Source: a virus
Taxonomy: Duplodnaviria > Heunggongvirae > Uroviricota > Caudoviricetes
IMG/VR virus record: IMGVR_UViG_2690316318_000016
Length of the DNA stretch: 13,080 bases
Strand: one strand, 5' to 3'
In this document: one piece after another, positions 1 to 13,080 of the stretch
Position numbering within the stretch: position 1 is the first letter of the stretch
Layout of the letters: the number at the start of each line of letters is the position of its first letter
The notes under the pieces: model-generated
Told to the model about the DNA's origin: nothing
The model's input: only the letters and a program-made list of their open reading frames with translations
Database searches by the model: none
Translations under genes and position numbers: made by a program

Positions 1-249
1 ATGCGCACACAGGTTGTATTGCAAAAATGGGGTAATAGCATTGCCCTTCGACTAACGGGAAACCTTAAAACCGTTCCGGGTTTTTCAGTGGGTGATATCG
101 TCAACGTTGAAATTAGTGAAAAGGGGCTTTTTGTAGAAAAGCCTGCACGCCGTCGCCTGAGTGAAGCCGAATTACTCGCCGGGATAACGCCAGTTACAGC
201 GCACGCGGACGAAATTGCCACCCCATTCAATGAGGAGGTTGATTACTGA
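1..249 (+). CDS. MazE/PemI-family antitoxin (AbrB/SpoVT-type DNA-binding domain), 82 aa
   Basis: ORF MRTQVVLQKWGNSIALRL... has the WGNS motif and size typical of MazE/ChpS/PemI antitoxins. Its stop overlaps the start of the downstream toxin gene (TGATG, 247-251). The ORF begins at the window edge, so no promoter is visible. Confidence 0.8.
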   Translation: MRTQVVLQKWGNSIALRLTGNLKTVPGFSVGDIVNVEISEKGLFVEKPARRRLSEAELLAGITPVTAHADEIATPFNEEVDY

Positions 250-593
250 TGTTTGTACCTAAGCGTGGTGATATTTGCTGGCTGGATTTTGAGCCGCAGA
301 AAGGAAAAGAGATCGGAAAGTATCGCCCGGCACTCATACTATCCCATGAGCAATATAACCGACTCACCGGGCTTGTCATATGCTGCCCCATAAGTACGAG
401 CATACGAAATGCTCCCACAGAAGTTCCGGTAACAAATCTGGACGCCCCCAGCGTGGTAGCAACCACTCTCATTCAAACCCTTGACTGGCGTCAGCGGAAA
501 GCGCGCTTAATCACAGAGGCAGAAGATGGGGTATTTAATGATGTGCTTGAAAGAGTCATTACCCTGATTGGTGGAGAGCATCTGCTTAAGTAA
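249..593 (+). CDS. MazF/PemK-family endoribonuclease toxin, 114 aa
   Basis: ORF MFVPKRGDICWLDFEPQKGKEIGKYRPALILS... resembles the MazF/ChpB/PemK N-terminus (RGD..W.DF.P..G.E....RPA..LS). Size and position directly after the antitoxin with a 1-nt stop/start overlap fit a type II TA pair. Confidence 0.85.
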   Translation: MFVPKRGDICWLDFEPQKGKEIGKYRPALILSHEQYNRLTGLVICCPISTSIRNAPTEVPVTNLDAPSVVATTLIQTLDWRQRKARLITEAEDGVFNDVLERVITLIGGEHLLK

Positions 594-636: not shown

Positions 637-1908
637 CTATTCTTTCCAGTCAATCCCATCCAGTAAGCACCCTGCCTCATATTTCCCCACCACCCAGTCA
701 AGGTTACAGGACTCATAGAACGCGAGGCGATTATACTGAGGCTCGTTTTTTACCAGGCCACGAACGGAACCACGCTGCCAGTACAGACACAGATTGGCAA
801 GAGGTGTGATCAATACAGCATTGTCCGGGAAAAATGGAACGGTTACAGCCGGGAGATTCCCCAGAACGGGATTTTTAATGATTTCCTCGTTAAGCAAAAT
901 TTCCTGATTCATCTGCGATGGATCAAGACGGTTTATCAAAGGCCATTGTTTACGGACCAGCGTATTGTGACTGCATACGGCCACAATGCCTTCCTGCCAC
1001 TGTTCATCAATCATGGATTGCCAGGCATCCAGAACGAGCGCATCTATCGTATGGTGTGTACCGCGTGTATTACTTTTCGGTGATGAAACAGAAAGGCCGC
1101 TGATAACCCTTCCCGCCGCTTCATTTCGAAACTTCTGCAACCAGCCCACGCCACAATCGTCACGCCCCGGATATGTTTTAGGGTCAGATTTGGCGGCATA
1201 ATGTGTGCCGTTAAAACCAATCTGAATTAAATCCAGCCATTTCCGGCGTTCAAAAGCGGCCCGCGCACTTCCTTCAAGGCCGTTTGCGGATGCGTGAGCA
1301 TCGGCATTGTCGTAGTTCAACGCAAAATCAAAATTAACCTGCTCGCAGCGGTAGCCCCTTGAAACCAGTGAATGCGCCTGTAGTGGCGAACGGCGCTCGT
1401 GAGGTGGCGATGTACGTGCCAACGGCCCCGAAGCGTCTACCAGCACAACCCGACCTGATATATCCGTAACAGGCACGGGAGTTATTTCAGCAAGGAAATT
1501 TGCCTGCCATCCACTGGCAAGCGTTGCACTCTGGCGAGGAACGGGTTCAACTTCTGACGAATAGCGCGCAGTGTCACCGGAAAAGTGCAAATCCTTCGGA
1601 TGTTTTCCGGTTATCGACTCGATAGCGCAATTGAAAACCATCTGAGCCTGTTGATTTCGTTGTGATACAACAGAATCAGCAGTGCAATTATAACGCTCAA
1701 TGCCGTCGTTATTACCCCCACCGCTTGCAGTATGCAGGGTGTGAAGCTCAAGCTCACGCTCCAGTTTTTGATATTCATTGTCCAGCGCGCGACGCGTCTC
1801 ATCGCTTATGCTTGCTGTGTTTGCTTTCAGGCGATTCCGGGACATTAATCCCCTGAGTCGGCTCACTATATCAGCGCCGTGCAAATGTGGAGTATTCAGA
1901 CCGCCCAT
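637..1908 (-). CDS. Hypothetical protein, 423 aa (start at Met48 of the 470-aa track ORF), unknown function
   Basis: Long open frame in GC-rich DNA. The ATG at 1906-1908 overlaps the TAA of the upstream 236-aa ORF (TAATG), suggesting translational coupling. No Walker A or other motif recognised. The track ORF's first 47 codons (1909-2049) overlap the upstream gene in another frame and are probably not translated. Confidence 0.6.
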   Translation of the reverse strand: MGGLNTPHLHGADIVSRLRGLMSRNRLKANTASISDETRRALDNEYQKLERELELHTLHTASGGGNNDGIERYNCTADSVVSQRNQQAQMVFNCAIESITGKHPKDLHFSGDTARYSSEVEPVPRQSATLASGWQANFLAEITPVPVTDISGRVVLVDASGPLARTSPPHERRSPLQAHSLVSRGYRCEQVNFDFALNYDNADAHASANGLEGSARAAFERRKWLDLIQIGFNGTHYAAKSDPKTYPGRDDCGVGWLQKFRNEAAGRVISGLSVSSPKSNTRGTHHTIDALVLDAWQSMIDEQWQEGIVAVCSHNTLVRKQWPLINRLDPSQMNQEILLNEEIIKNPVLGNLPAVTVPFFPDNAVLITPLANLCLYWQRGSVRGLVKNEPQYNRLAFYESCNLDWVVGKYEAGCLLDGIDWKE

Positions 1909-2618
1909 TACTGCCACCCCCGGCAGAGTTCTCTGCCCTCCGCAAGGTCGCGCATTTTTTCTGGATTCTGTCGCGCCGCGCTCCATTGTACAGGTGAAGG
2001 GGCGTTCCTGATTGCGCGGCTTACCGAATCCGGGAGTTTCTCCGGGCAATAACGCAGCGGGCTGGAGGTGTCGCTTTCGGTATCGTTAATCCGGCCGCGA
2101 ATCATCCCGACACTTTCAGCAGTATCTGTCGCTTTCAGTGTTTCGCATATTTTCTTTTCTGCGTTATACAGCGGCTGGCCAAGCAGCTCACATAAACCAC
2201 GAATCAATAACAGAGCAGGGGTCAGCTCGTTAATCAGTTCGGGAAGTGCTTTTGCAAATATCTCTGCCCGCAACTTATTATCAATGCTTTCGTAAGCACA
2301 ACCAGCCTCTGCCGCGTTATAACGACACTCCAGTAGCCTGATGCGCGCCTCATCATGCAGCACCCGCAGACGCTCAAGATTTTCTCGCGCCACACCCGCC
2401 TGAATGGATAATTTCGCGGAGGCTTCCGTTTTTACGCCCAGCGCAGACAGGATTGAGTTCTGCCAGTCACGATCGAGAGATTCCAGCTCCCCTTTCGTCT
2501 GTTCGATAGTTGCTTCCAGATTGGTGATTAATGATTCCTGTTCACTGAGTTTTGCCATGGCTGTATCAAACTGTGCTTTACATACCTGATGTTCGGCGCT
2601 TGCCTGAGTTATATCCAT
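1908..2618 (-). CDS. Hypothetical coiled-coil protein, 236 aa; possibly a Psu/Sid-like capsid-associated protein (weak, by context only)
   Basis: ORF MDITQASAEHQVCKAQFDTAMAKLSEQESLITNLEATIEQTKGELESL... is rich in E/L/A/K with a heptad-like pattern. It sits in a late-gene-like region near an Ogr/Delta-type activator. The Psu resemblance is from memory and unverified. The last ~45 residues are low-complexity, so a frameshift near 2050 cannot be excluded. Confidence 0.55.
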   Translation of the reverse strand: MDITQASAEHQVCKAQFDTAMAKLSEQESLITNLEATIEQTKGELESLDRDWQNSILSALGVKTEASAKLSIQAGVARENLERLRVLHDEARIRLLECRYNAAEAGCAYESIDNKLRAEIFAKALPELINELTPALLLIRGLCELLGQPLYNAEKKICETLKATDTAESVGMIRGRINDTESDTSSPLRYCPEKLPDSVSRAIRNAPSPVQWSAARQNPEKMRDLAEGRELCRGWQ

Positions 2619-2783
2619 TATTTGCTCCTGTAATACATTTTTTTACTTACGCCGATTTTTTCCATATTGCGTAATACATTCCAGCCGATTTTGTTCTCGT
2701 AATACGCTCACAATACTGTTGTATTACGCTTTCTTATATCGCGGGTGTTAAATCCCGGCATAAACAATCAGGGAGGCAACACG
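2619..2783. promoter_or_regulatory. Divergent intergenic region with direct repeats (GTAATACATT x2, GCCGATTTT x2) and an inverted repeat CGTAATAC-N15-GTATTACG (2698-2728)
   Basis: Repeats read directly from the sequence. The region separates the divergent 236-aa gene and the small RHH-like gene. A GGGAGG ribosome-binding site lies at 2771-2776, upstream of the ATG at 2784. Confidence 0.45.
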
Positions 2784-3017
2784 ATGAAAAAACAAAAGAA
2801 AATGCGATGCGTATTACGCTGTATTCGTATCCCGCACGAAATCGACCATAAAATAAATCAGATATGTCAGGACAGAGAGATGAACTACTCCCAGTGCGTC
2901 AGAATGTTTATCAGTCAGGGAATTAAGGCCGGGGAAAAGCAGGAAGAAGACTGCAACGGGCGCAATGTAGCGGGGGATGTGTGGGCCTGGGCAAATGACC
3001 AGAACCACACGACGTAA
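2784..3017 (+). CDS. Small putative ribbon-helix-helix-like DNA-binding protein, 77 aa
   Basis: ATG at 2784 is preceded by GGGAGG (the track ORF starts 13 codons earlier without a ribosome-binding site). MRCVLRCIRIP followed by two predicted helices fits a strand-helix-helix pattern. Function is not established. Confidence 0.5.
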   Translation: MKKQKKMRCVLRCIRIPHEIDHKINQICQDREMNYSQCVRMFISQGIKAGEKQEEDCNGRNVAGDVWAWANDQNHTT

Positions 3018-3067
3018 TACAGAAATAACGCAGCCGGTCACACTCGCTGGCTGTGTTATACAAATCA

Positions 3068-3250
3068 CTATGAAGTTTTCGACTTCCTGCGCTTAGTAAT
3101 GCGTACAAACGACTCAAGCGTACAAAAACAAGCCCCACACTCAATATTATTGCACTGGTAATACGTTCTGTAGATGTTTTGTTCGTGTTCTTCCAACGAA
3201 CGACCACGGGTGCGGGCTGAAGCGCCACAGGCCGGGCAAGGGAAAGACAT
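3068..3250 (-). CDS. ogr: Ogr/Delta-family zinc-finger late transcription activator, 60 aa
   Basis: ORF MSFPCPACGASARTRGRSLEEHEQNIYRTYYQCNNIECGACFCTLESF has the C-x2-C...(22)...C-x4-C spacing and YxQC motif characteristic of P2 Ogr / P4 Delta. Confidence 0.8.
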   Translation of the reverse strand: MSFPCPACGASARTRGRSLEEHEQNIYRTYYQCNNIECGACFCTLESFVRITKRRKSKTS

Positions 3251-3540
3251 ATCACGCTCCTCTTACTGGTGTGAAATTTAACCTATTATATCTTCTGCCG
3301 CCCCCTCTGGCTGTATCAAATAAACCCGCAGCAGTCGCCGCGTATTACGCACGGGCGCGCCGTTCCCATGCTCACTCGTCACATTCCCCGTATCAGTTCT
3401 CTCTTGCCGTAAGAACGGCTCTGGCTGGCGATAAAACTAACCCGGTCGGGGCATTCCCGCAGCCTTTAGCGAAAATGTAATTTACCCCCTGAAACGCGTG
3501 CTGTTCCCCCGTCACCTGCGCGCGAAAAACTCACCGTTTT

Positions 3541-3639
3541 TTGTGCACGCACGAAATCGCCCTCCGGGCGCGCCAGTACTGGGCCGGATGGGCAAAAAGT
3601 TACTCTAAAAAATTGTGCAAATTTGTGCACTTTTGTGCA
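3541..3639. promoter_or_regulatory. Array of TTGTGCA motifs (3541, 3613, 3623, 3633); the last three phased at exactly 10 bp and forming overlapping GTGCA/TGCAC palindromes
   Basis: Read directly: aTTGTGCAaaTTTGTGCActTTTGTGCAg. Ten-bp phasing puts the sites on one helix face, as in operator or iteron arrays. The region is GC-rich and noncoding-looking, between the ogr-like gene and the iteron cluster. Confidence 0.4.
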
Positions 3640-3865
3640 GATGAACAACAGCGTCAAAAAGAGTGCTTTTGAGAGATTTTTTATGGCAACTGCGCCGCGT
3701 GTATTACGTTTTTTACCATCCCCGCCGCGCATGTACATACTTCATTTTTCTGCCAAACAACAGGGCAACTCCCCGTGACTGACAGCCCCAAAAAAATCAA
3801 TGATTGATGTTGCATTTTTGTTAGAGGTCAGGCCAGTTGTTTTGGGGCTCTGCCTCATAATCCGG

Positions 3866-4184
3866 TGGGGGGTGCGCAAAGCGGTTACAACGGTTACAAC
3901 CCCAAAAAACACCACATAACAATATGATTTTAATGAATATTATTTGTAACCGCTTTGCGGTTACACTGCGGTTACAACGGTTACAGGTTTCAGAAAGTTA
4001 TTTATTATCAATCAGTTAAAAACTTAACTTGTAACCGCCTGTAACCTAACAAAACGGTTACATGTAACCGCGTTGTAACCGCTTTTGTAACTCATCGGAC
4101 CAGTTGTAATATGTTGATATATAATATAAAAATAAGTGATTTTAAATTTGTAACCGTTGTAACCGCTTTGCGCAACCCCCCCCG
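3866..4184. repeat. Iteron cluster: at least 13 copies of GGTTACA/TGTAACC (many extended to GCGGTTACA) in both orientations, AT-rich spacers, bounded by a perfect 26-bp inverted repeat (3874-3899 and 4148-4173); putative replication origin
   Basis: Repeats and the inverted repeat were checked base by base. A perfect 9-3-9 palindrome TGTAACCGC-ttt-GCGGTTACA lies at 3945-3965. The architecture (short iterons in both orientations plus an AT-rich stretch) parallels the P4 ori/crr bound by alpha protein, and it sits just downstream of the primase/helicase-integrase operon. Confidence 0.5.
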
Positions 4185-4381
4185 GACTTTAGCGCGACTC
4201 TTTAAAATGTTAATTAAACACACTTACTCTGTTTCACTCTCATTAACTCTCTGTAATTGAAATGTGCCTCGCCACTGCTTGACTCTTTCTGGTAATCAGG
4301 GGAGGGAGAGCAAAAAAATTGATGGCGACACCGCTGCAATATGGCCGCCATTGCATTGCTGTTACTGTTGGTTCTGGCCAA

Positions 4382-4416
4382 CAAAAAAGGCCAGTGGAAA
4401 ACTGACCTCTTTTGCT
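4382..4416 (-). terminator. Weak candidate terminator downstream of the P2-type integrase (imperfect hairpin flanked by an A-run and a T-run)
   Basis: acAAAAAAggccagtggaaaactgacctcTTTTgc; the stem has a mismatch, so this is low confidence. Confidence 0.3.
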
Positions 4417-4437
4417 GTGAATGTGGCGTTCTGCGGG

Positions 4438-5439
4438 TTACTCTGCAGGCTCTTTTTGTCCGGTAAATACCATGTCGGCTACCGGGTTAAATCTCATGGC
4501 ATCTGCCAGATAGTCGGGAGAAAAATGCGCATAAGTCATCGTTTGCTGAATAGTGGCATGTCCCAGAATCCGTTGCAGGGTAACGATGTTTCCCCCGTTC
4601 ATCATGAAATGCGTGGCGAACGTATGACGCATCACATGAGTCGCCTGCCCTTTTGGCAAATCAGGCTTCACCTCCTGGAGGATCTCGCGAAACCGGAGAT
4701 AATCGACCTCGTACAGCGGCCCGGTTCGGCGGGTTTTAATCAGCGAGAGCACGGCATCAGACACCGGAACCGAACGGGACTTCCCGTTCTTGGTGTTGAA
4801 GAACGTCACGCGATTACCGACGATATGCTCTCCGCATAATTCCGCCGCCTCACCCCACCGCGCCCCCGTAGAAAGACACAGAATGGCGACACGACGCGCA
4901 TCACCTTCGAGTCGTTCAAGAAGCCGCTCAATCTCATCATCAGAAAGAAAGGCCATCTCTGTATTCTGAATTTTTAGCTTACGTATATTGCGCACGGGGT
5001 TCGGGTTGTGAAAGCTCCCTGCTTCAATCAACACCGTGAACATGGTAGACAGAACGCATAAATCACGATTAATACTGGACGGCATTAATCCGGCCTGTAA
5101 TTTCTCTGACCGATATTCAAGCATAAATTTTCGCGTCATCTGACTGGCGCGAGGATCTCTCATTTCACGAATCACTTTCTCCAGCCGGATCCTGTAGGTA
5201 TCGCCGTAAGCCTGATTGCGCCCGTCAAGCATCCACCATGTATCAAGCAACTCTGATAATCGCCGCCGATCAGCAGGTTTAGCCAGCCATGGGTTATTAT
5301 GGAAATTCTGCAAAACATATTGTTCGAACTTCTCTGCACTTCCTTTCCGGGCAAAAATTTTACGTATCCGTTTGCCGTATGCCCCTTGCGGCCTGATATC
5401 TAGCAACCATCTTCCATCATCCATCTTTCTGATCGACAT
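4438..5439 (-). CDS. int: Tyrosine recombinase, P2-type integrase family, about 333 aa
   Basis: C-terminal catalytic region LPKGQATHVMRHTFATHFMMNGGNIVTLQRILGHATIQQTMTYAHF (HxxR, GH and catalytic Y) and box I STGARWGEAAEL closely resemble P2 Int as recalled. Start chosen at the ATG at 5437-5439 (MSIRK...) because an AAGGAGA ribosome-binding site precedes it and it lies 2 nt after the primase stop; the track start at 5475 overlaps the primase. Confidence 0.9.
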   Translation of the reverse strand: MSIRKMDDGRWLLDIRPQGAYGKRIRKIFARKGSAEKFEQYVLQNFHNNPWLAKPADRRRLSELLDTWWMLDGRNQAYGDTYRIRLEKVIREMRDPRASQMTRKFMLEYRSEKLQAGLMPSSINRDLCVLSTMFTVLIEAGSFHNPNPVRNIRKLKIQNTEMAFLSDDEIERLLERLEGDARRVAILCLSTGARWGEAAELCGEHIVGNRVTFFNTKNGKSRSVPVSDAVLSLIKTRRTGPLYEVDYLRFREILQEVKPDLPKGQATHVMRHTFATHFMMNGGNIVTLQRILGHATIQQTMTYAHFSPDYLADAMRFNPVADMVFTGQKEPAE

Positions 5440-5441
5440 AC

Positions 5442-8111
5442 TTAAGGTCTCTCCTTGTAACTGAATATCCGGCATTTCAGCACTTCCGGCTCTCTGGCTT
5501 CGGCTACCCCTTTTCCGGCGTTTGCCTGTCTGGACACCTCACTACGAATTGTTTTACGACCTGTCAACGGTCGGGAGCGTCCAGCCCCGAGCAACTCAAT
5601 CATTTCGCGATCGGTTCGGATCTCCACGCGGTGAATGGCGGCTGCCTGTGCCAGTTGCGGAATACTGATAGCAATCCCTTCGCGGCATCCCTTGCCGTAG
5701 TGGTTTACACCGTATTTTGTTATGCCGTCCAGGAAGTCGAACGCCTCCCAGAATTCCACCACTTCCGGTAAATCAGCCGCCGCCGCTTTAACCTGCGCTG
5801 TTGCCATTTGTTCCAGTTCCAGACATGTGGCATCAAGCCATTCATCCGGGATATCGATAACGCATTTCAGCGCCCTGACCAGCGCGATAATTTGCGCGTG
5901 ATTTTTGGCGATACGGGGATGGCGAATATTTTCGCAGCCGCAAAGGCGTTCCGTTTCAGCTGGCGACACTTCCAGGAACGTTTGCATAATCGCCCGTTCC
6001 TGACTTACCGCCCGATGAATAAACCCCGATACCTTCTCGACGGGGTAGAGTTCCAGCCGTCTTGCCGCCAGTCGGGTATCAGGTGAATGGCGTTTTTTGT
6101 CGGTGTAGATGCGTATCAGGCGCTCAATAATTGCCGGAGAGGCGTTTACCCGCGCATTCTGCGCAATCACGATAGCGCCCTTAAAATCCGGGTCATAGGT
6201 GTTGTTATTGTTGGCTTTAACACCACGAACGCCGATACCACCGCCGTTATAGAGACTTTTCAGGTTATCGAAGTCAAACGCACCTCTTTTTTGCGCATTG
6301 TCTCCCCGGTCCGCTTCAATCAGAACAACAGGTAATCCGGCGACCTGTCCAAAGGTGCGCTTCCAGCCCGCCTCTGATCCTTTGGTTGGATCAACGCCTT
6401 CATAGTTGTCACGACCGCACAACCGCCAGCAAAAATCAATCAATGTTGATTTACCCGTTCCGGGTTCCCCGGTGACTTCAAGGAAGGGGAAGGATTCTTC
6501 TTTATCCCGGATTTGTTCGCTGAACAGGGAGCCCAACCAGAAAGCCAGGGTAATAATTCCCTTTTCACCAAAAGCCAGCCAGAGATCTTCCACCCAGGAC
6601 TCTGTAAACTCATCCGTTTTTTTGTAGTTAATCTGTAATGTGGGTTTTTCGCTTAATGGTTTTGCGTTTATGCCATCAATTTCAAAATAATCCTCATCAT
6701 TGATTTCATAAGTTTTACCCTTGTAAACGGCAATATCATTAAACAGCCATGCCCCAATTCCCTTGTTGTATCCGATAAAATCCTGACCAATAACCTCTTT
6801 TATTGCGGGAAGGTCATTTTTTATTAATGCGTCAAGCTGCGTAGTCGTTCCGGTATAAATACCACCTTTTGCCACGTGCAGCAGGCGTTTTTTAAATTCA
6901 GATGAGGATGTTAATTGTCCTGATGTAAAGGTGTTTTTCACCGTAGCACCATCCGGGAATGTAACGCGGAAGTAATACCATGCTTCATCCGTGTCATTGT
7001 TTCGAATGTAATAAAGCGGCACTGGGTTACAGTTTGCGATTTCTTTTACAGCGCCGGATTCCTTAAGTGCAATTTTTCGCGCTTCATCTTCGTCAACACT
7101 TCGCTCATTAATGACACGTTCAACAGCCTTCATATAGCGCTCAATATCCAGCTTGAACCAGAAAACACGGTTATCAAAGGTAAAATAAAACTCCTTCCGC
7201 TCACGAAAGGAAAATATTATCAGCGCCTTATCTCTCGGCGATTTCGCCAGCAATAAATCACCGTAATAACGGTATCTTTTCACATCATGGCCACGCAGCT
7301 TTCCGGCGATGTGTAAATCATTCCAGTCGCGTTTATTGTTGTTTTTACCTGGCAACGCCGCTGCCGTTCTCCAGCCGTCTTCGGCGCTGCGTTCTGCATG
7401 TTTTTTCGCGTAACGTTCACCCGCACGCCCGTTATCCAGGGCCCACACAATAACCGGACGGGGATTATCCCCGCACAGCTTCGCCAGCTCTTCCAGCGCC
7501 TTATCAGGGTAGTTCACGGCAGACATGACAGAAACGGCCGCAATGCCATTCTGGTTAAGGCTGATGGCATCAAAGATGCCCTCACAAATCCAGATTTCTT
7601 TGGCCTTGCTTAAATCTGCTCCCGGATAAGCCCACCACAACCCCTTGTAGCTGCCGGAAAAATTCGCCTTGCGCGCGAAGCGTCCCGGTCGGTCTATGAT
7701 GCGCTCCCACCACACGCCGTCAGCCAGCGTAAAACGCACAGTAGCGGCCTGTTCGCCGCTTTCCTTGTCCTGGTATCGCTCCTGAGTAAATGCGCCCTTC
7801 AGTGGCCCCACAGCAATATTGCGCGCTTCCTGAAGATAAGCTGCCGCCGCTGCATATGGCTCATCTTTCGTGCTGATATAACGATCTGACCATGATGAAA
7901 ACACATCCGGGTAAAGTTCTTTGGTCAGCAGGTCTGTACCGCATTTATTTTCGCGCCCACAGTGTACGATGTACGGCTTCTCAAGACTGGTAAACAGTTC
8001 TTTCTTTCCACATTGCGGACAAACACCATAGCGAAGATAGTTATTTTCTTCTTTAAAGTTGTAATCACGGATAAGACGGTTAATAATCTCTTTTCTGGTG
8101 TTATTTTTCAT
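5442..8111 (-). CDS. P4 alpha-like DNA primase/helicase (zinc ribbon + TOPRIM-type primase + P-loop NTPase), about 889 aa
   Basis: N-terminal zinc-binding motif CPQCGKK...HCGRENKCG; TOPRIM-like WICEGIFDAISL; Walker A TGEPGTGKST and Walker B VVLIEAD. Start placed at the ATG at 8109-8111 (MKNNTRK...); the track's GTG start at 8132 would translate the poly-C tract. Confidence 0.9.
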   Translation of the reverse strand: MKNNTRKEIINRLIRDYNFKEENNYLRYGVCPQCGKKELFTSLEKPYIVHCGRENKCGTDLLTKELYPDVFSSWSDRYISTKDEPYAAAAAYLQEARNIAVGPLKGAFTQERYQDKESGEQAATVRFTLADGVWWERIIDRPGRFARKANFSGSYKGLWWAYPGADLSKAKEIWICEGIFDAISLNQNGIAAVSVMSAVNYPDKALEELAKLCGDNPRPVIVWALDNGRAGERYAKKHAERSAEDGWRTAAALPGKNNNKRDWNDLHIAGKLRGHDVKRYRYYGDLLLAKSPRDKALIIFSFRERKEFYFTFDNRVFWFKLDIERYMKAVERVINERSVDEDEARKIALKESGAVKEIANCNPVPLYYIRNNDTDEAWYYFRVTFPDGATVKNTFTSGQLTSSSEFKKRLLHVAKGGIYTGTTTQLDALIKNDLPAIKEVIGQDFIGYNKGIGAWLFNDIAVYKGKTYEINDEDYFEIDGINAKPLSEKPTLQINYKKTDEFTESWVEDLWLAFGEKGIITLAFWLGSLFSEQIRDKEESFPFLEVTGEPGTGKSTLIDFCWRLCGRDNYEGVDPTKGSEAGWKRTFGQVAGLPVVLIEADRGDNAQKRGAFDFDNLKSLYNGGGIGVRGVKANNNNTYDPDFKGAIVIAQNARVNASPAIIERLIRIYTDKKRHSPDTRLAARRLELYPVEKVSGFIHRAVSQERAIMQTFLEVSPAETERLCGCENIRHPRIAKNHAQIIALVRALKCVIDIPDEWLDATCLELEQMATAQVKAAAADLPEVVEFWEAFDFLDGITKYGVNHYGKGCREGIAISIPQLAQAAAIHRVEIRTDREMIELLGAGRSRPLTGRKTIRSEVSRQANAGKGVAEAREPEVLKCRIFSYKERP

Positions 8112-8119
8112 ATATAAAT

Positions 8120-8159
8120 CCCCCCCCCCCACTGCACCTTTTGCAGTGGGGTTTTTATT
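8120..8159. promoter_or_regulatory. 11-nt homopolymeric C tract (8120-8130) plus a 10-bp GC-rich stem-loop (CCCCACTGCA-ccttt-TGCAGTGGGG, 8127-8151) followed by TTTTTATT, just upstream of the primase start
   Basis: Read directly. On the plus strand it looks like an intrinsic terminator. On the minus-strand mRNA the hairpin and G-run sit 8 nt upstream of the primase AUG, where a G-run could act as the Shine-Dalgarno. Confidence 0.45.
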
Positions 8160-8463
8160 AATTACTCGTTACTTCTTGTTTCCGGGCAATCCCTGCGGCT
8201 TCAGCTTTGTGCCATGAAAAAATTCCGCCAGATAAATGCATACCAGATTTAATCGTTTGTAATTCTCTATAAATAATGTTAGACAGAGATACAATTTCTT
8301 CATTTATAATTTCTGCTGATGCTCCGCCATTTTTATCGCCAAAGACTACAGATATTAAACTGACGAGATTAATCACATCTGCGAGATCTTCCTTTGCACT
8401 TTCTGTAAAAAAGCCAACATATTCTCTATCTAAAATATTTTCGCTATTCTGACGTTTAGACAT
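8158..8463 (-). CDS. Hypothetical protein, 101 aa, AT-rich
   Basis: ORF with a GGGAG ribosome-binding site 6 nt upstream of the ATG at 8463. Composition is visibly more AT-rich than the neighbouring primase and small-ORF genes. No recognisable motif. Confidence 0.55.
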   Translation of the reverse strand: MSKRQNSENILDREYVGFFTESAKEDLADVINLVSLISVVFGDKNGGASAEIINEEIVSLSNIIYRELQTIKSGMHLSGGIFSWHKAEAAGIARKQEVTSN

Positions 8464-8530
8464 AAAAACTCCCCGACCCGTTAAGGTCGAAATATAAATT
8501 GAATTCAGTTATCAGTGGGTAATTCGGGAA

Positions 8531-8749
8531 TCAGGCGGAAAGCTGCGTAACCTTCAACGCCCTGAAATGTGTCATTCCCAGCTCTTCCAGCCCTTCGGCT
8601 GCGCGGCGTATGGCTTCGCCCGGCCCCGTTCCGTATACCGTTGCGTGTGCATGTTTGGTTAACCCGCGCTTATTAACGGCATAACCCAACACAAAGAAAC
8701 ATTTTTCACCACTGCCATTATTTTTACGGGATGTTGAACGGGTTTTCAT
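8531..8749 (-). CDS. Hypothetical small protein, 72 aa
   Basis: ATG overlaps the stop of the upstream ORF (ATGA, 8746-8749); AGGTGA ribosome-binding site upstream. Confidence 0.5.
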   Translation of the reverse strand: MKTRSTSRKNNGSGEKCFFVLGYAVNKRGLTKHAHATVYGTGPGEAIRRAAEGLEELGMTHFRALKVTQLSA

Positions 8750-8934
8750 TTCTTCACCTTTACCACTGATGCTGTGAGTTCTTCTTCTGGTAATTTATAT
8801 TTCGGCGCAATTTCTTCCGTATACCTGATAGCGTCCCTTGCCGCTTTTCCTTTTGATTTATATTTATATGTGGTGCGGTAGTTTTCTTCCTCTCCTGTTA
8901 CCACATTACGCAATTTAATATGAATCTCGTACAT
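8746..8934 (-). CDS. Hypothetical small protein, 62 aa (MYEIHIKL...)
   Basis: Start at the internal ATG at 8934 with a strong GGAGGGG ribosome-binding site, 2 nt after the upstream stop; the longer track start lacks a ribosome-binding site. Confidence 0.55.
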   Translation of the reverse strand: MYEIHIKLRNVVTGEEENYRTTYKYKSKGKAARDAIRYTEEIAPKYKLPEEELTASVVKVKK

Positions 8935-8936
8935 CG

Positions 8937-9119
8937 TTACCCCTCCATGATTTTTACTGCGCATTTGTGGGTTAATCGCCCCTGTTTGTCATTGCGGGAA
9001 TATGCCATACGACAGGCATCACGCCATGCATCGTCATAAGTCGGATATTCCCAGGAATGAATCATCTGGCGAACGTCGCCGTTCTGGTAGTTAATCAGGG
9101 TGATAAGGAGCTTAAACAT
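8937..9119 (-). CDS. Hypothetical small protein, 60 aa (MFKLLITLINYQNGD...)
   Basis: Start at the ATG at 9119 with a GGGAGG ribosome-binding site; overlaps the upstream ORF's end by 8 nt (ATGTTTAA). Confidence 0.55.
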   Translation of the reverse strand: MFKLLITLINYQNGDVRQMIHSWEYPTYDDAWRDACRMAYSRNDKQGRLTHKCAVKIMEG

Positions 9120-9285
9120 GGCACGCCTCCCGGACACGGATACGGGCAACAAAGACCAGACGGGATGCCGGAAGCATGGCGCGCGCTTCGCGCTCACTGG
9201 CTGCGGTAACGGTATGAAGGCGAATATTTTTACCGTGGCACTGCATAAAGCGCCAGATAAAATCAGGGCGTGTTGATATAGCCAT
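9112..9285 (-). CDS. Hypothetical small protein, 57 aa (MAISTRPDFIWRFMQCHGKNIRLH...)
   Basis: Internal ATG at 9285 preceded by a GGAG ribosome-binding site. The 175-aa track ORF extends to 9639, but its N-terminal part looks non-protein-like and would cover the leader and promoter region. Confidence 0.45.
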   Translation of the reverse strand: MAISTRPDFIWRFMQCHGKNIRLHTVTAASEREARAMLPASRLVFVARIRVREACHV

Positions 9286-9643
9286 TTTGGCGGCTCCTCT
9301 AACTGATTTACGGAGTCTCGCCAGCACGCTGCTAAACATGGTGGCGGGACGTAACAGGGTTAGCAGACTGGCGTTAGAGAAACCAGCGAGCGCAAAGGCT
9401 CCCCCATTACGCCCCGCCATAATACGGGGTAGGGTGGAATTACGGGCACAAAAAAACCGCATTACGGAAATATAGCGGCTACCCGCTCTAACAATCAGGC
9501 TGCTAAACCCGGCACCTGTTTTATGAGGTGCGGGCAAACGATACGCCATGACAAAAAAGCGAGTCAAGAAAAATTGCAAATTATTTTGGCGATATTGCGC
9601 TGAGTTATTGATTTTTAAGAGTAAAAAAGTCATAATCATTTCT

Positions 9644-9731
9644 GCCTATTGTTTCTTATTGTTGGTTTCAGGTGCATTAAATGCACATCCTTGACTGGTT
9701 GGCTCGCTGGCTTTAGCGAGCTTCTTTTTTT
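9644..9731 (+). ncRNA. Candidate small RNA of about 90 nt: sigma70-like promoter (TTGATT 9608-9613, 17-nt spacer, CATAAT 9631-9636), internal palindrome GTGCATT-a-AATGCAC (9672-9686), intrinsic terminator (GCTCGCT-ggcttt-AGCGAGC + T8, 9702-9731)
   Basis: All elements read directly. The terminator is unambiguous for the plus strand (hairpin followed by TTCTTTTTTTT). The promoter assignment is by eye. No plus-strand protein gene ends here. Confidence 0.3.
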
Positions 9732-9833
9732 TGCTCTGCTGTCAGCGCCCGACCTCTCCCCCTCACGTGTAGCAACGTGTTCACATCAGTAAGTTTTGCC
9801 GCCAAGCGATGGGCTGCAATAAGCCGCCCGGGC

Positions 9834-10154
9834 TTATTCAACTCTGGCGCTACCGGATTCCCTCTCCCTTTTCTTTTTGGCGTTTTCGTATGGGTTATTC
9901 ACTTTGGCAATAACTGGCGGATTACGTAGCCACCACAAAACATCACTTAACAGCCAGGTACATGAGCAACGCCCCAAAGAGTGACGGGGAGGAAAAGCAC
10001 CGATCTTCTCCAGTTCCCAGCGCCGGGAGCGTGAAAGCGTGGTCATTTTTTTACACTTCTCTTCCCTGATGCGTTCTTCGCAGTCAAAACCATACTCGGC
10101 GAGTATGGTGCGGCGCTGTTCTGGAGTTGGTGGAATGAATGCGGATTGAGTCAT
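9834..10154 (-). CDS. alpA: AlpA-family phage transcriptional regulator (HTH), 106 aa
   Basis: Core TTLSRSRRWELEKIGAFPP...LGRCSCTWLLSDVLWWL matches the AlpA/prophage CP4-57 regulator pattern. GGGGGA ribosome-binding site upstream of the ATG at 10154. The N-terminal ~35 residues are an extension relative to 70-aa AlpA. Confidence 0.8.
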   Translation of the reverse strand: MTQSAFIPPTPEQRRTILAEYGFDCEERIREEKCKKMTTLSRSRRWELEKIGAFPPRHSLGRCSCTWLLSDVLWWLRNPPVIAKVNNPYENAKKKRERESGSARVE

Positions 10155-10249
10155 ATTTCCCCCTATGTTTCTGAACTTTCGGGGGAGATTTTTGTTTTAC
10201 GGGGTTTTGAAAGCAAGTATTAAAGGTCTTATTAAGATGCTTGCTGGTC

Positions 10250-11302
10250 TTACTGAGATGATGCCTTAATCCATCTTGATATAGTACTTTTATCAAAGCG
10301 CATATTGAGTCCTGCCTCTTTTGCTTCCGCGGTCAATATATCAGCAAGTTTTACCGGATTGTTTTCGAGTTCTTTATAATGAATAACAAGCATCGCACGA
10401 AAAAAATCCTTCATTGTTTTAGATAATCGTTCTATATTGTTTTTATTGGTGCATATATCTTTCTCTCCATCCTCAGAGCTTAATATATTGTTACCCGCAC
10501 ACAAATATAAAGTGTCTGCCAATGGATTAACATAATCTTTTCTTAACTCGCTATTGAAGCTTGTAGCATTTTGTATTTTTAAAAAATCACTCTTTAAGAT
10601 ATATAAATCACCAATATCAAAAGAAACATCCTCAGTAACAATTACTCCTATATGTATATCAACGTCAGAAGCAATTATAATATTGCTATTAATTATTCGG
10701 TTGGCTTTAAACTTCTTATTAAAATCATAGTTGGCAAAAAAACTTCTCCCCAAAGCGAAAATGCCGCCTATTTCAACAAAATACTTATGGTATTTTTCTT
10801 GAATACCTTTAAATACTGGTGGTACAACTGCCACAGCTCTTTCATCCGTTGCTATTCGATATACACTATATATGTGATAATTTTCCCCATAATATAACCC
10901 CCTGTTATAATAATTTAACAAAGCAAATGCAGTATCAATTGCTATGTCACCAAATTTGGGCGCTACATATGAATGACTTAGAGATTCGCACATTGAATCA
11001 AATATAATTCTCGACTTGGTTTTTATATAATTAAAACCATGGTGTTCTGCCGCCCTTTCTGAAATGGCATCAAGGTCAGATAACCGTGATTTACATGGTT
11101 CTGAATCCAGAAACTTACGCAGACAATCGAAATTAACCACATCTTTTTCATCTGGGATATTTAATACTCCATATGCAGATTCAATTTTTATACAAATACG
11201 AATGCAGCCTGTCACAGCCCAATGAATAAGATCATCAATATCGCAATCTAATAACTTTGCCGCGCGCTCAATAGGATAGTAATCTCTTAGTGGTAACGTC
11301 AT
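10250..11302 (-). CDS. Hypothetical protein, 350 aa, strongly AT-rich orphan gene in the integrase-alpA cargo slot; possible HTH-like segments at both termini
   Basis: Single uninterrupted ORF in DNA visibly far more AT-rich than the rest of the element; it starts 17 bp after the integrase stop. N-terminal PIERAAKLLDCDIDDLIHWAVTGCI and C-terminal FDKSTISRWIK resemble HTH segments; the central ~250 aa has no recognisable motif. Confidence 0.7.
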   Translation of the reverse strand: MTLPLRDYYPIERAAKLLDCDIDDLIHWAVTGCIRICIKIESAYGVLNIPDEKDVVNFDCLRKFLDSEPCKSRLSDLDAISERAAEHHGFNYIKTKSRIIFDSMCESLSHSYVAPKFGDIAIDTAFALLNYYNRGLYYGENYHIYSVYRIATDERAVAVVPPVFKGIQEKYHKYFVEIGGIFALGRSFFANYDFNKKFKANRIINSNIIIASDVDIHIGVIVTEDVSFDIGDLYILKSDFLKIQNATSFNSELRKDYVNPLADTLYLCAGNNILSSEDGEKDICTNKNNIERLSKTMKDFFRAMLVIHYKELENNPVKLADILTAEAKEAGLNMRFDKSTISRWIKASSQ

Positions 11303-11318
11303 TCTTTTCGCTCACATA

Positions 11319-12518
11319 TTATTTATCTTTAACCATTTTTTCTAAACATTCAAGCCAGTCATTTAGAGCCTTTAATTTGAATGGGATATACTGGCTAAGA
11401 TTATAGTTAAATTCTGCGGAGCCAGCATTATATACGTGACCTAATAATGACTCGACAATATGAGGCATTACCCCCATGTTGTTTAACCCAGTTGAAAATG
11501 TCCGTCTTAAATCGTGTAGCGTCCATTTTTCATTATGTCCGAATATTTTATACATTCTGCGACCTTTCAGAGAAACAGCTCTATGCGTTCTCTCCTCACC
11601 CAAAAGTAAGCCCGTCCTCCCGGTTTCCTGTTTTAGCTCTTTTAACCAGTCTCTTATACCTTCGGGAATTGGCCGAATAATCTTTTTGTTACTTTTACTG
11701 TTATTTCTTGGAACAATCCAAACCCATTCATTAAAATCCCATTCAATCCAATGAGAACGGCGAATCTCTACAGTTCTAGCCCCAAAGACAATAAGCAACT
11801 TTATTAATCTAGAAAAATAAATATCCCGATGTTTCTCCTTTGCAAAATACCAAAGATCTGATAGTTCGGCATCACTCAAAACACGGTCGCGCTGTCCGGC
11901 AGATTCCCCTACATCGGTTAACGTTAAATGAACAAGGGCATCACTGATGGCATAACGCCGAACATTGCAAAACCGCAATGCCTGTTTGGAGAGTTGAAAC
12001 ATACGCCCCGCCGTTTTTGAACTTATAGCGCGAATCTCATCAAAACATTTTACCCAATGGCGAGTATCGCACCGTGATAACGGATAATGGCCTATTCTGG
12101 GGTAGACATGTTTGCAGAATTGCGCCCTAATCAATTCCTCATCTTTGCGCTTATGTCTTGCATAATTGACCAACCAATATTCCAACGCATCTCGAACAGT
12201 AACAGGAGCACGGGATTCTTCAGTAAAAAGTTGGAGTTCAATTTTTGGATCAAGACCATTAGCCAACCATTGACGGCAACGCTCACGCCACATCCTGGCA
12301 TCTTTCAGACTAATATCAGGGTAATTCCCTAGAGTAAGACGAATAACTGAACTCTCACGCCCTCCAAGGCGATATGAAAAAACCCAGCTCACATGCCCTT
12401 TAGTTGATAACCTGACCCCTAACCCCTCTCCGTCAGCAAGCATTTCAACACGATCCCTATGCGTTCCTTGCAGCGCCTTTAGTTTCCTGTCGCTGAGCTT
12501 ATTCGTTCCAGACATCAT
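11319..12518 (-). CDS. int: P4-type tyrosine integrase (DUF4102-like N-terminal arm-binding domain + phage integrase catalytic domain), about 399 aa
   Basis: N-terminus KLSDRKLKALQG...GEGLGVRLSTKGHVSWVFSYRLGGRE...LTLGNYPDISLKDAR matches the P4 integrase-family N-terminal domain. C-terminus HDLRRTFSTGL...LLGHV carries the HxxR and GH motifs. Start placed at the ATG at 12516-12518 (the track start is GTG at 12521). Confidence 0.9.
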   Translation of the reverse strand: MMSGTNKLSDRKLKALQGTHRDRVEMLADGEGLGVRLSTKGHVSWVFSYRLGGRESSVIRLTLGNYPDISLKDARMWRERCRQWLANGLDPKIELQLFTEESRAPVTVRDALEYWLVNYARHKRKDEELIRAQFCKHVYPRIGHYPLSRCDTRHWVKCFDEIRAISSKTAGRMFQLSKQALRFCNVRRYAISDALVHLTLTDVGESAGQRDRVLSDAELSDLWYFAKEKHRDIYFSRLIKLLIVFGARTVEIRRSHWIEWDFNEWVWIVPRNNSKSNKKIIRPIPEGIRDWLKELKQETGRTGLLLGEERTHRAVSLKGRRMYKIFGHNEKWTLHDLRRTFSTGLNNMGVMPHIVESLLGHVYNAGSAEFNYNLSQYIPFKLKALNDWLECLEKMVKDK

Positions 12519-12530
12519 CACCGTTCCGAT

Positions 12531-12553
12531 ATTGATACACGCATTGATACACG
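12531..12553. repeat. Tandem direct repeat ATTGATACACG x2 (12-bp period) immediately upstream of the P4-type integrase start
   Basis: Read directly: ATTGATACACGcATTGATACACGt, 13-35 nt upstream of the integrase ATG; candidate operator or arm-type site. Confidence 0.35.
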
Positions 12554-12864
12554 TGAAATATTAATATCCAGAAAAAATGAAATCGAGCATGAACACAAAA
12601 TCACTACAACATAATGATTTTGATTGATTTTTTATATTCAGCGGGTAAACACTAGAAAAGTCAGGAACATAAAAAACATTACTTCTACAGTATGTTTCAT
12701 ATCTCTAACCATATGATTTAAAAACAAATCACTTCGCACGGGCGGGTTTCGGCACCGCAACAAAGCGCAAGACATGCAGTATACCAGCAAAACTATTCAT
12801 AAGCGGAATCCGTTAATAAAGTTCAATTTGTGAAAAGAAACGCATTGGTTCGCCGCAGGACAGC

Positions 12865-13080
12865 ATGCCGTTCCCGATGCCCGTTCCGGTACCGTTCAAT
12901 ATGGGAATGCCGATGCTGGGCGGGCCGATCTCTACTGCGGGTAATGTGCTGTTTATCGCCGCTACAGCAGATAACTACCTGCGCGCTTACAACATGAGCA
13001 ACGGTGAAAAACTGTGGCAGGCGCGTTTACCCGCAAGGGGCCAGACAACGTGCGCTTTGTTCATGCCGGATGCGGCGTGA
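12865..13080 (+). pseudogene. Orphan fragment resembling the C-terminal beta-propeller region of a PQQ-dependent (quinoprotein) dehydrogenase such as Gcd; truncated and running into a REP element
   Basis: Translation ...PFPMPVPVPFNMGMPMLGGPISTAGNVLFIAATADNYLRAYNMSNGEKLWQARLPA... matches the C-terminal region of E. coli-type glucose dehydrogenase as recalled, then diverges into REP-derived codons and stops at 13078-13080. The frame is open only from 12820, so at most about 85 codons are present. Identity is from memory, not a search. Confidence 0.45.
13063..13080. repeat. Start of a REP (repetitive extragenic palindrome) element, GCCGGATGCGGCGTGA, cut by the window end
   Basis: Matches the 5' part of the classic enterobacterial REP consensus GCCGGATGCGGCGTGAACGCCTTATCCGGCCTAC. 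Confidence 0.5.

Follow-up and report, generated by a model that had tools for sequence, protein, structure and literature searches.

In this study, we analysed a 13,080-nucleotide stretch of viral DNA (IMG/VR record IMGVR_UViG_2690316318_000016; Caudoviricetes), hereafter the window. The window very probably holds nearly all of one intact, integrated phage satellite of about 13 kb, which lies in the hpt gene of E. coli and parasitises P2-like phages. The P88-like Xuanwuvirus phages are most probably its helper group, as judged from shared sequences. An earlier reading of the same DNA (the original prediction) had proposed a helper-dependent, satellite-like element, and this is supported by satellite hallmark genes, regulatory RNAs, iterons and cos homology, all of which point to such a way of life. 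We found that the element encodes a capsid protein of the P2 family beside a probable homologue of the P4 protein Sid. It also carries a second integrase, of the P2 type, which does not set its chromosomal site.

Extent and distribution of the element

The ends of the element were determined by comparison with an island-free genome, as the original prediction had advised for defining the attachment sites attL and attR. Against the empty site of K-12, the left and right homologies overlapped by exactly the first 24 nucleotides (nt) of hpt. The attR core, a copy of these 24 nt, is therefore at 12677-12700. The attL copy lies outside the window, at the start codon of hpt some 262 bp before position 1, and differs from the attR copy at 2 of 24 positions. 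Two direct ATTGATACAC repeats at 12531-12552 are candidate arm-type sites of the terminal integrase, and a tandem ATTGATACAC repeat also lies just inside attL in the related loci L001 and L007. Tandem repeats inside both ends are what the arm sites of one attP would be expected to look like, and we regard them as candidates for such sites. The boundaries given earlier, 637-12560, were too narrow, as the mazEF genes (1-593) and attR belong to the element and attL lies left of the window. No tRNA gene was found in the window.

The island stands between hpt and gcd. At least 80% of the window was covered in 40 of 5,426 complete E. coli genomes, at 93-97% identity, and the module from the capsid gene to ogr was found in 57 of them (about 1%). 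The gene order annotated in the L001 and L002 genomes is that of the window, where almost all long open reading frames (ORFs) are on the minus strand. Dozens of complete E. coli genomes have the identical arrangement. It is therefore no assembly artefact, and the chimeric assembly considered earlier is refuted.

Capsid gene, Sid-like gene and Ogr-type activator

Capsid, terminase and tail genes had been described as absent. This was borne out for terminase and tail genes, and neither these nor portal or lysis genes were found in the ORF list of the window or in hmmscans. It was wrong for the capsid. The ORF at 637-1908 (minus strand) encodes a P2-family major capsid protein (gpN homologue) of 423 amino acids (aa), which matched PF05125 with E=4e-72. 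It showed 34% identity to P2 gpN over 345 aa and 34% identity to P88 gpN along the full protein. The top PDB match of its AlphaFold2 model was gpN in the P4 procapsid (7jw1_B, E=1e-24). The protein scored 134 bits, under the TIGR01551 equivalog cut-off of 219.65, and carries an N-terminal helical extension of about 85 aa that phage gpN is without. Capsid proteins of 393-497 aa in which this extension is conserved form a separate clade in Escherichia, Salmonella, Klebsiella, Erwinia and Pectobacterium. The ratio of nonsynonymous to synonymous substitution rates (dN/dS) of the satellite capsid gene was 0.17.

The adjoining ORF at 1908-2618 (minus strand) encodes an all-helical protein of 236 aa with remote similarity to P4 Sid, and its stop codon overlaps the capsid start (ATGA). 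Members of its family are 236-242 aa long, compared with 244 aa for Sid. In a search of four sequences, the family hidden Markov model (HMM) matched P4 Sid colinearly with E=9e-5 and gave no match to Psu or gpO. The alignment by hhalign was also colinear (P=0.004; columns 11-136 against 10-142), and a D-x-W...G-G-V motif is common to the family and P4 Sid. The AlphaFold2 model showed a confident helical hairpin, with a predicted local distance difference test score (pLDDT) of 90. When this model was searched with Foldseek, P4 Sid (7jw1_E) ranked 6th of 350,542 PDB chains (E=0.28) and had the highest full-length TM-score (0.45). The protein had no Pfam or PHROG match. These sequence and model comparisons suggest that the family of about 240 aa is probably homologous to P4 Sid, the external size-determining scaffold. 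Homology to Psu, epsilon and gpO was sought for the 236-aa protein and the small ORFs, and none was found.

The Ogr/Delta-type zinc finger of the original prediction was confirmed at 3068-3250 (minus strand; PF04606, E=3e-11). It is a late-gene activator of 60 aa with a single domain, 37% identical to P2 Ogr and 39% identical to the first half of P4 Delta. A 77-aa ORF at 2784-3017 (plus strand) lies between it and the Sid-like gene. This ORF is weakly ribbon-helix-helix-like, with matches of the RelB/VapB-antitoxin type (E of about 0.005), and its homologues occupy the same slot and orientation in L022, L024 and L026. In every context examined, the order was Ogr, small opposite-strand ORF, protein of about 240 aa and capsid gene. 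These comparisons indicate that the module of Sid-like protein and extended capsid is conserved across Enterobacterales. We found no published description of it in the available text of the literature searched.

A putative divergent control region before the Sid-like and capsid genes, read from the sequence at 2619-2783, contains repeated GTATTAC/GTAATAC. Five or six copies are present in and around it (2619-2830), and they could be operator sites. A dyad at 4366-4383 was considered as an Ogr-type late promoter and dropped; it was flagged also in L007 and not in L001 or L002. L007 (E. coli 52F4), at the same hpt site, has another gpN-like gene, 25% identical to that of the window, together with a 291-aa partner (12244-14182). 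The two genes stand between alpA and icd. L007 also has Hok in place of MazEF (5693-5839) and is without the P88-type cos segment. As its gpN-like gene is different and lies elsewhere, capsid modules were acquired more than once in the group.

A cos-like segment shared with P88-like phages

The original prediction saw no obvious cos-like sequence. In this study, we found one at 3474-3640, a segment common to P88-like (Xuanwuvirus) phages and assigned by homology and by its position in them beside the portal gene. It showed 78-83% identity to a non-coding segment of P88, PhiR44_2, vB_EcoM-569R5, Chuche and others. In these phages the segment adjoins the portal gene Q, which is the cos position in P2. 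The alignment crosses the end-to-start junction of the linear record LR595891 (P88_4B11) unbroken. If this record was deposited with physical ends, the cut site would be near 3575-3595. A cos of the P2/P4 type was also sought, using the 19-nt P2 cos (up to 3 mismatches) and the cos junctions of both phages, and the window gave no match.

The cos-like segment at 90% identity or more marks 56 satellite-bearing genomes. In raw counts, 39 of these 56 have at least one further, more divergent cos-like copy, compared with about 21% of other genomes. The extra copies fit a possible co-residence with helpers.

Three phased TTGTGCA repeats stand at the edge of the segment (3611-3640). The repeat stretch is identical in PhiR44_2 and differs by one base in P88_4B11, and it could be a binding site for terminase or an accessory factor. 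A 90-aa ORF at 3466-3738 (minus strand) is called a hypothetical protein in some RefSeq copies (L002, 9467-9739). It is probably not a gene, because it overlaps the non-coding cos-like segment and has no family matches.

The terminal integrase sets the chromosomal site

Two tyrosine integrases of different families in one element had been reported, and both are real. The terminal one, at 11319-12518 (minus strand), is of the P4 type as predicted (Arm-DNA-bind_3 and Phage_integrase) and showed 22% identity to P4 Int by BLASTP (E=3e-16). The AlpA/Vis-type excisionase and regulator was likewise found, at 9834-10154 (minus strand; PF05930; phrog_2790, E=5e-30), with 32% identity to P4 ORF88.

Two sister elements were compared. 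L006 (E. coli ETEC4071) has the same core, from MazEF through the Icd-like gene, and lies beside tRNA-Arg. Its AlpA and its terminal integrase both differ from those of the window, and its P2-type integrase is the L001-type allele, with 91% aa identity to that of the window. L007, at hpt, has a terminal integrase 99.5% identical to that of the window and a P2-type integrase that is only 54% identical. The site follows the terminal integrase, since L006 with another terminal integrase is at tRNA-Arg and L007 with the same one is at hpt. These comparisons indicate that the P4-type integrase, not the P2-type one, sets the chromosomal site.

A conserved second integrase of the P2 type

The second integrase, of 333 aa, is encoded at 4438-5439 (minus strand; Int_N and Phage_integrase). 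The original prediction had assigned it to the P2 type, which agrees with its 50-52% identity to P2 Int (52% over its full length). In annotated genomes the gene begins two bases past the primase stop. The catalytic R, HxxR, H and Y are kept in an alignment with the P2, P88 and 569R5 integrases. Two satellite copies gave a dN/dS of 0.07 and the L002-L007 pair one of 0.04; against the nearest phage gene it was 0.09. These values indicate that the second integrase is under strong purifying selection and is a conserved, selected part of the element. A P2-type integrase also follows the primase in Klebsiella and in another E. coli lineage. Because it is kept after the primase there and in L006, it is part of the core and not of a neighbouring element.

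The alleles of this gene are far more diverse than the flanking genes, and the divergent block is always 4650-5390. Despite this swap, the last ~70 codons and the downstream origin are conserved across sister elements. The closest phage integrases differ with the allele. The window type is nearest to vB_EcoM-569R5 (84% aa identity), the L002/L007/L014 type to P88_4B11, PhiR44_2 and Chuche (82%), the Klebsiella type (L022) to P2 (78%) and the L026 type to phiT5282H and SEN4/5 (70%). The phages matching the first two types belong to the P88-like group that shares the cos-like segment. A second copy of the integrase, as a co-resident prophage with the same allele would give, was present in 8 of the 21 genomes whose satellite has an allele of the window or L001 type, but some of these 8 carry two satellites.

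We then searched the window for the att core of 569R5 (serS terminator) and for its ATGGACA arm repeats, and both were absent. Homology to the phage integrase gene ends before the 3' end of that gene in the window element, and in the Klebsiella sister L022 the homology to P2 int ends before the P' arm and attP. A different, novel attP for the second integrase in the window is possible.

Primase, iterons and immunity region

The ORF at 5442-8111 (minus strand) encodes a primase/replicase of 889 aa with a zinc ribbon, Toprim and a DUF927/DUF5906-like C-terminal part (phrog_1139, E=3e-298; Toprim_2, Toprim_3). It had been called alpha-like. This suits its function and position; its sequence similarity to P4 alpha is only marginal (BLASTP, E=0.002 over 27 aa). 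Relatives with 37-43% identity in Rhodoferax, Comamonas, Cardiobacterium and other Proteobacteria adjoin Ogr-like genes, and a P4-type integrase is also present in 3 of 7 such distant loci. None of the seven has a capsid gene or a second integrase, and these two genes are therefore specific to the enterobacterial lineages.

The predicted iteron cluster was also verified. It lies at 3861-4186, resembles a replication origin and has 13 copies of GGTTACA in 3883-4164, where 1.2 would be expected over the entire window; 0 of 200 shuffles attained the total of 16 counted in the window. The cluster is bounded by 39-nt inverted arms at 3861-3899 and 4148-4186. The Klebsiella sister L022 has other iterons (GTGGGAACA), likewise downstream of primase and integrase.

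The immunity region (9112-9639, minus strand) was recognised by Rfam and NF033153. It contains a C4 antisense RNA at 9337-9424 (72.9 bits; gathering score 45) and an isrK-like RNA at 9450-9531 (52.2 bits; gathering score 50). An a1/b1 target-like site at 9492-9544 scored 33.8 bits with c4-a1b1, under the gathering score of 46.7. The Icd-like ORF matched NF033153 with E=2.5e-14, only over its C-terminal ~45 aa, and overlaps the C4 and isrK-like RNA genes. The region thus has the C4 RNA and downstream icd-like ORF of C4/immI-type immunity, with a target site below the gathering score. Four small ORFs between icd and the primase (8158-8463, 8531-8749, 8746-8934 and 8937-9119, minus strand) are annotated and conserved in L001 and L002 and had no family matches.

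Proposed cycle and alternative explanations

By analogy with P4 and with immI of P1, the C4-type RNA would silence the early operon in the integrated state. This operon would begin with the Icd-like gene, include the small ORFs and the primase and end with the second integrase. Once it is derepressed, or in a newly infected cell, excision of the element would be carried out by AlpA and the terminal integrase, and the primase would fire the iteron origin. As in P4, Ogr would switch on the late genes of the helper and, presumably, the Sid-like/capsid operon of the satellite. Small capsids for 13 kb would then form, with the satellite supplying at least part of the shell protein. Cutting and packaging at the P88-type cos would fall to the helper terminase, and helper tails would finish the particle.

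P2-type prophages excise poorly because Int is limiting after derepression. A P2-type helper prophage is normally non-inducible. The second integrase, expressed with the replication genes, would act in trans on att sites of the helper type. A matching Int supplied by the satellite would in this way release a poorly excising P2-type helper prophage as template. We favour this role in trans over integration of the satellite itself by the second integrase, which is unlikely. We put forward tentatively the combined proposal that this is a satellite lineage with its own gpN-type shell and Sid-like scaffold, whose attP-less, helper-type integrase forces or controls helper excision in trans. Such a lineage would have given up part of the strategy of P4, in which Sid and Psu do no more than cage the capsid protein of the helper.

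Several points weigh against our account. It is built on comparison of sequences and predicted structures, and the element is known here from its sequence alone. The cos assignment depends on homology, on a location adjoining the portal gene and on where a single deposited linear record has its ends. The co-occurrence figures, both for further cos-like copies and for second integrase copies, are raw counts that may partly reflect clonality and second satellites within a genome. The homology to Sid is weak, with an HMM E of about 1e-4 in a tiny search and a Foldseek E of 0.28 among many coiled coils. There is no confident Ogr-type late promoter in the window, where TGT-N12-ACA occurs 3 times against 2.75 expected. 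In a Salmonella sister, likewise at hpt, the slot of the second integrase is occupied by HicAB and a MazE-like gene (L024/L025, 7031-7987). The second integrase is thus frequent in the family yet dispensable to it, and it could be merely another cargo gene. Identity of 70-84% to phage integrases does not amount to recent exchange. For the L002-type allele, megablast gave matches in satellites only and none in E. coli prophages. As a separate observation, the slot downstream of the primase behaves as a cargo hotspot, holding HicAB and a MazE-like gene in Salmonella where the E. coli and Klebsiella elements have the integrase.

As the main alternative to the role in trans, the second integrase might act on the satellite's own DNA, either in multimer resolution near the origin or as a second integration module for a helper-type attB. 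We consider this rather doubtful, even if its setting is suggestive: the gene stands directly between primase and iteron origin in three lineages, seems to share a transcript with the replication genes, and has about 250 bp downstream that are conserved, like its last ~70 codons, where the integrase cores differ. P2-type packaging uses monomeric circles, which would suit multimer resolution. However, the window yielded no attP-like core or arm repeats matching those of the related phage, and among the sister elements seen none had a site that goes with the second integrase. Two-thirds of the protein, the arm- and core-binding parts, are exchanged between elements that keep the same adjacent DNA, which is unexpected for a cognate protein-site pair. 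The capsid homologue, in turn, might serve in interference, by co-assembling with helper gpN or poisoning it, so that the element would be mainly an anti-P2 defence island. Its divergence, its score under the TIGR01551 cut-off, its extra N-terminal domain and the toxin-antitoxin cargo of the element would agree with this. The protein nevertheless keeps the full HK97/gpN fold under purifying selection, and its gene is always paired with the Sid-like and Ogr genes, here also with the cos-like segment. This combination suits particle formation and makes interference improbable as the main function.

Loss of mobility, in a decaying P2-like prophage or P4 hybrid, would account for the absent portal, terminase, tail and lysis genes and for the deletion of gcd beside the island in the window genome. 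We judge it very improbable, since all ORFs are intact and dN/dS was 0.07-0.3 for every gene tested, which contradicts the decayed hybrid suggested earlier. The same gene set is moreover kept across genera at 29-50% protein identity. The element also occurs at different att sites with exchanged integrase modules, which indicates recent mobility. Hardly credible to us is a pair of neighbouring elements, with capsid, ogr and integrase as a P2-like remnant and primase, AlpA and integrase as a P4/PICI-like island (PICI, phage-inducible chromosomal island). Integrases of two families are indeed present, and Ogr and a P2-type integrase are also near each other in P2-like phages. Yet a single att duplication with matching arm repeats encloses everything, the P2-type integrase lies 2 nt past the primase at another locus and in other genera, moving with the primase, and no attP accompanies it. 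These results refute the two adjacent independent elements that the original prediction had allowed for.

Comparison with known satellites and phages

For SatelliteFinder, P4-like satellites are defined by seven markers (PMC8628076, PMC10085698), and they also score as Type C PICI, according to the available text of the SatelliteFinder paper (PMC10085698). The tool assumes one integrase per element, as described there. Our comparison with these markers was made by Pfam, PHROG and P4-protein searches in place of the SatelliteFinder profiles. Integrase, AlpA and Delta were found; Psu, epsilon and the canonical gene order were not. Alpha and Sid have uncertain counterparts, namely a primase of comparable size and location with iterons, and the remotely Sid-like protein. 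No Psu was detected by Pfam, PHROGs, BLASTP or hhalign to P4 Psu. For epsilon there was no BLASTP match to the P4 protein, and the small ORFs at 8158-9119 belong to no family.

By analogy, the element is functionally a P4-like satellite. It resembles P4 in its size (P4 has 11.6 kb, within a shared range of about 11-13 kb), in a terminal P4-type integrase, an AlpA/Vis regulator, a large primase with iteron origins and an Ogr/Delta activator of P2-type late genes. Both also have a helical protein of about 240 aa, here a probable Sid homologue, a cos of the helper's type and cargo at the ends, and the satellite would share the dependence of P4 on a P2-like helper. The gene order is different. The P4 prophage has crr, alpha, ..., ORF88, ori, sid-delta-psu, cos, cargo and int, whereas the satellite has int, cargo, alpA, immunity, primase, second integrase, ori, cos, ogr, Sid-like gene, capsid gene and cargo. 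Unlike P4, it has a primase of another family (phrog_1139), a Delta consisting of a single 60-aa Ogr-like domain where that of P4 is tandem, and a cos of the P88 type, not the P2/P4 type. It also has its own gpN-type capsid gene and the second, P2-type integrase. The available text of the satellite surveys and of the other literature searched describes no P4-like satellite with a gpN homologue or a second integrase; others may exist.

Among the traits of Gram-negative PICIs, integrase, AlpA and primase are present, together with a capsid gene. Pfam and PHROG scans of the window gave no Rpp or TerS-like gene. The element shares with capsid-forming PICIs (cf-PICIs) an own HK97-fold major capsid protein, and the capsid of the cf-PICI EcCI2 was a distant fold match (E of about 4e-9, 13% identity). 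However, cf-PICIs encode the whole head module, including portal, protease/scaffold, head-tail adaptors and terminase subunits, and take only the tails of the helper. The satellite has only the capsid and Sid-like proteins, and its capsid belongs to the gpN family of the helper. No portal, protease, adaptor or terminase was found among window ORFs of at least 50 aa. As the capsid gene is the only part of the head module present, the element is not a cf-PICI.

The satellite has in common with the ogr-attP-int region of P2-like phages an activator of the Ogr type and an integrase of the P2 family (50-84% identity). In the cos-like segment and in both of its integrase allele types, its lineage is nearest to P88-like phages. 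Unlike P2-like phages, it has no attP, C repressor or Cox, no structural genes beyond the capsid homologue, and it has a cos and a plasmid-type origin between ogr and integrase. When P2/P88 portal, terminase P and M, O, L, C, Cox, B, A and other proteins were compared by BLASTP, homologues were recovered for N, Ogr and Int alone; the check for tail and lysis genes drew on the ORF list and hmmscans only. These searches indicate that the element is not a P2-like prophage remnant. Its immunity region resembles P1 immI (c4-icd-ant) and IsrK-type regions, in which C4 and isrK-like RNAs followed by an Icd-like ORF head the early operon. It differs from P1 immI in that a replication operon follows, not an antirepressor, and in that the a1/b1 match is under the gathering score.

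Accessory genes and the hpt-gcd neighbourhood

Cargo is found near both ends. At the attL-proximal end, a MazE-like antitoxin (1-249, plus strand; phrog_4324, annotated as AbrB/MazE family in L001) precedes a MazF/PemK toxin (249-593, plus strand; PF02452, E=4e-25). In L006, MazF has accompanied the capsid module to tRNA-Arg. A 350-aa protein encoded at 10250-11302 (minus strand) is probable cargo from its composition, with a guanine-cytosine (GC) content of about 31-35% in an element of about 47%. It had no family in Pfam, PHROG, PADLOC or NCBIfam and is absent from L006, which has another integrase module. Linked to the hpt-type integrase module, it is a candidate for a novel cargo or defence gene. 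Neither MazEF nor the 350-aa protein had a PADLOC match.

The insertion cuts hpt off from its native upstream region, which is now at attR, 13 kb away (12677-12833). In island carriers, hpt receives a satellite-derived 5' end and upstream sequence, which changes MKHTVEVM of K-12 to MKHYVEVM (L001, 5715-6000). In the window genome gcd is a remnant, with the hpt-gcd intergenic region fused at 12834 to the last ~200 nt of gcd. This deletion amounts to 2,124 bp relative to K-12, and about 150 bp more, including the gcd stop, are swapped for 9 nt (13035-13043). In all E. coli and Escherichia sp. island copies examined, gcd is intact.

Significance

P4, the classic example of capsid-size piracy, depends wholly on the capsid protein of its helper. 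A satellite with its own helper-type capsid beside a Sid-like gene is a natural experiment on T=4 versus T=7 assembly, and the capsid-bearing family could show how satellites pass from remodelling helper capsids to making their own. The core module is found in roughly 1% of complete E. coli genomes, and related modules exist in Salmonella, Klebsiella and plant-associated Enterobacterales. A search tool built on a single integrase per satellite and on required Psu/Sid profiles is likely to miss or mis-delimit such elements. The selected, helper-type and attP-less second integrase raises the testable question of whether satellites recombine the att sites of their helpers, which bears on why P2 prophages excise so poorly. 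Both the capsid gene and the second integrase are unusual, and each can be tested directly. If it is true, action of this integrase in trans would represent a novel means of helper manipulation by satellites.

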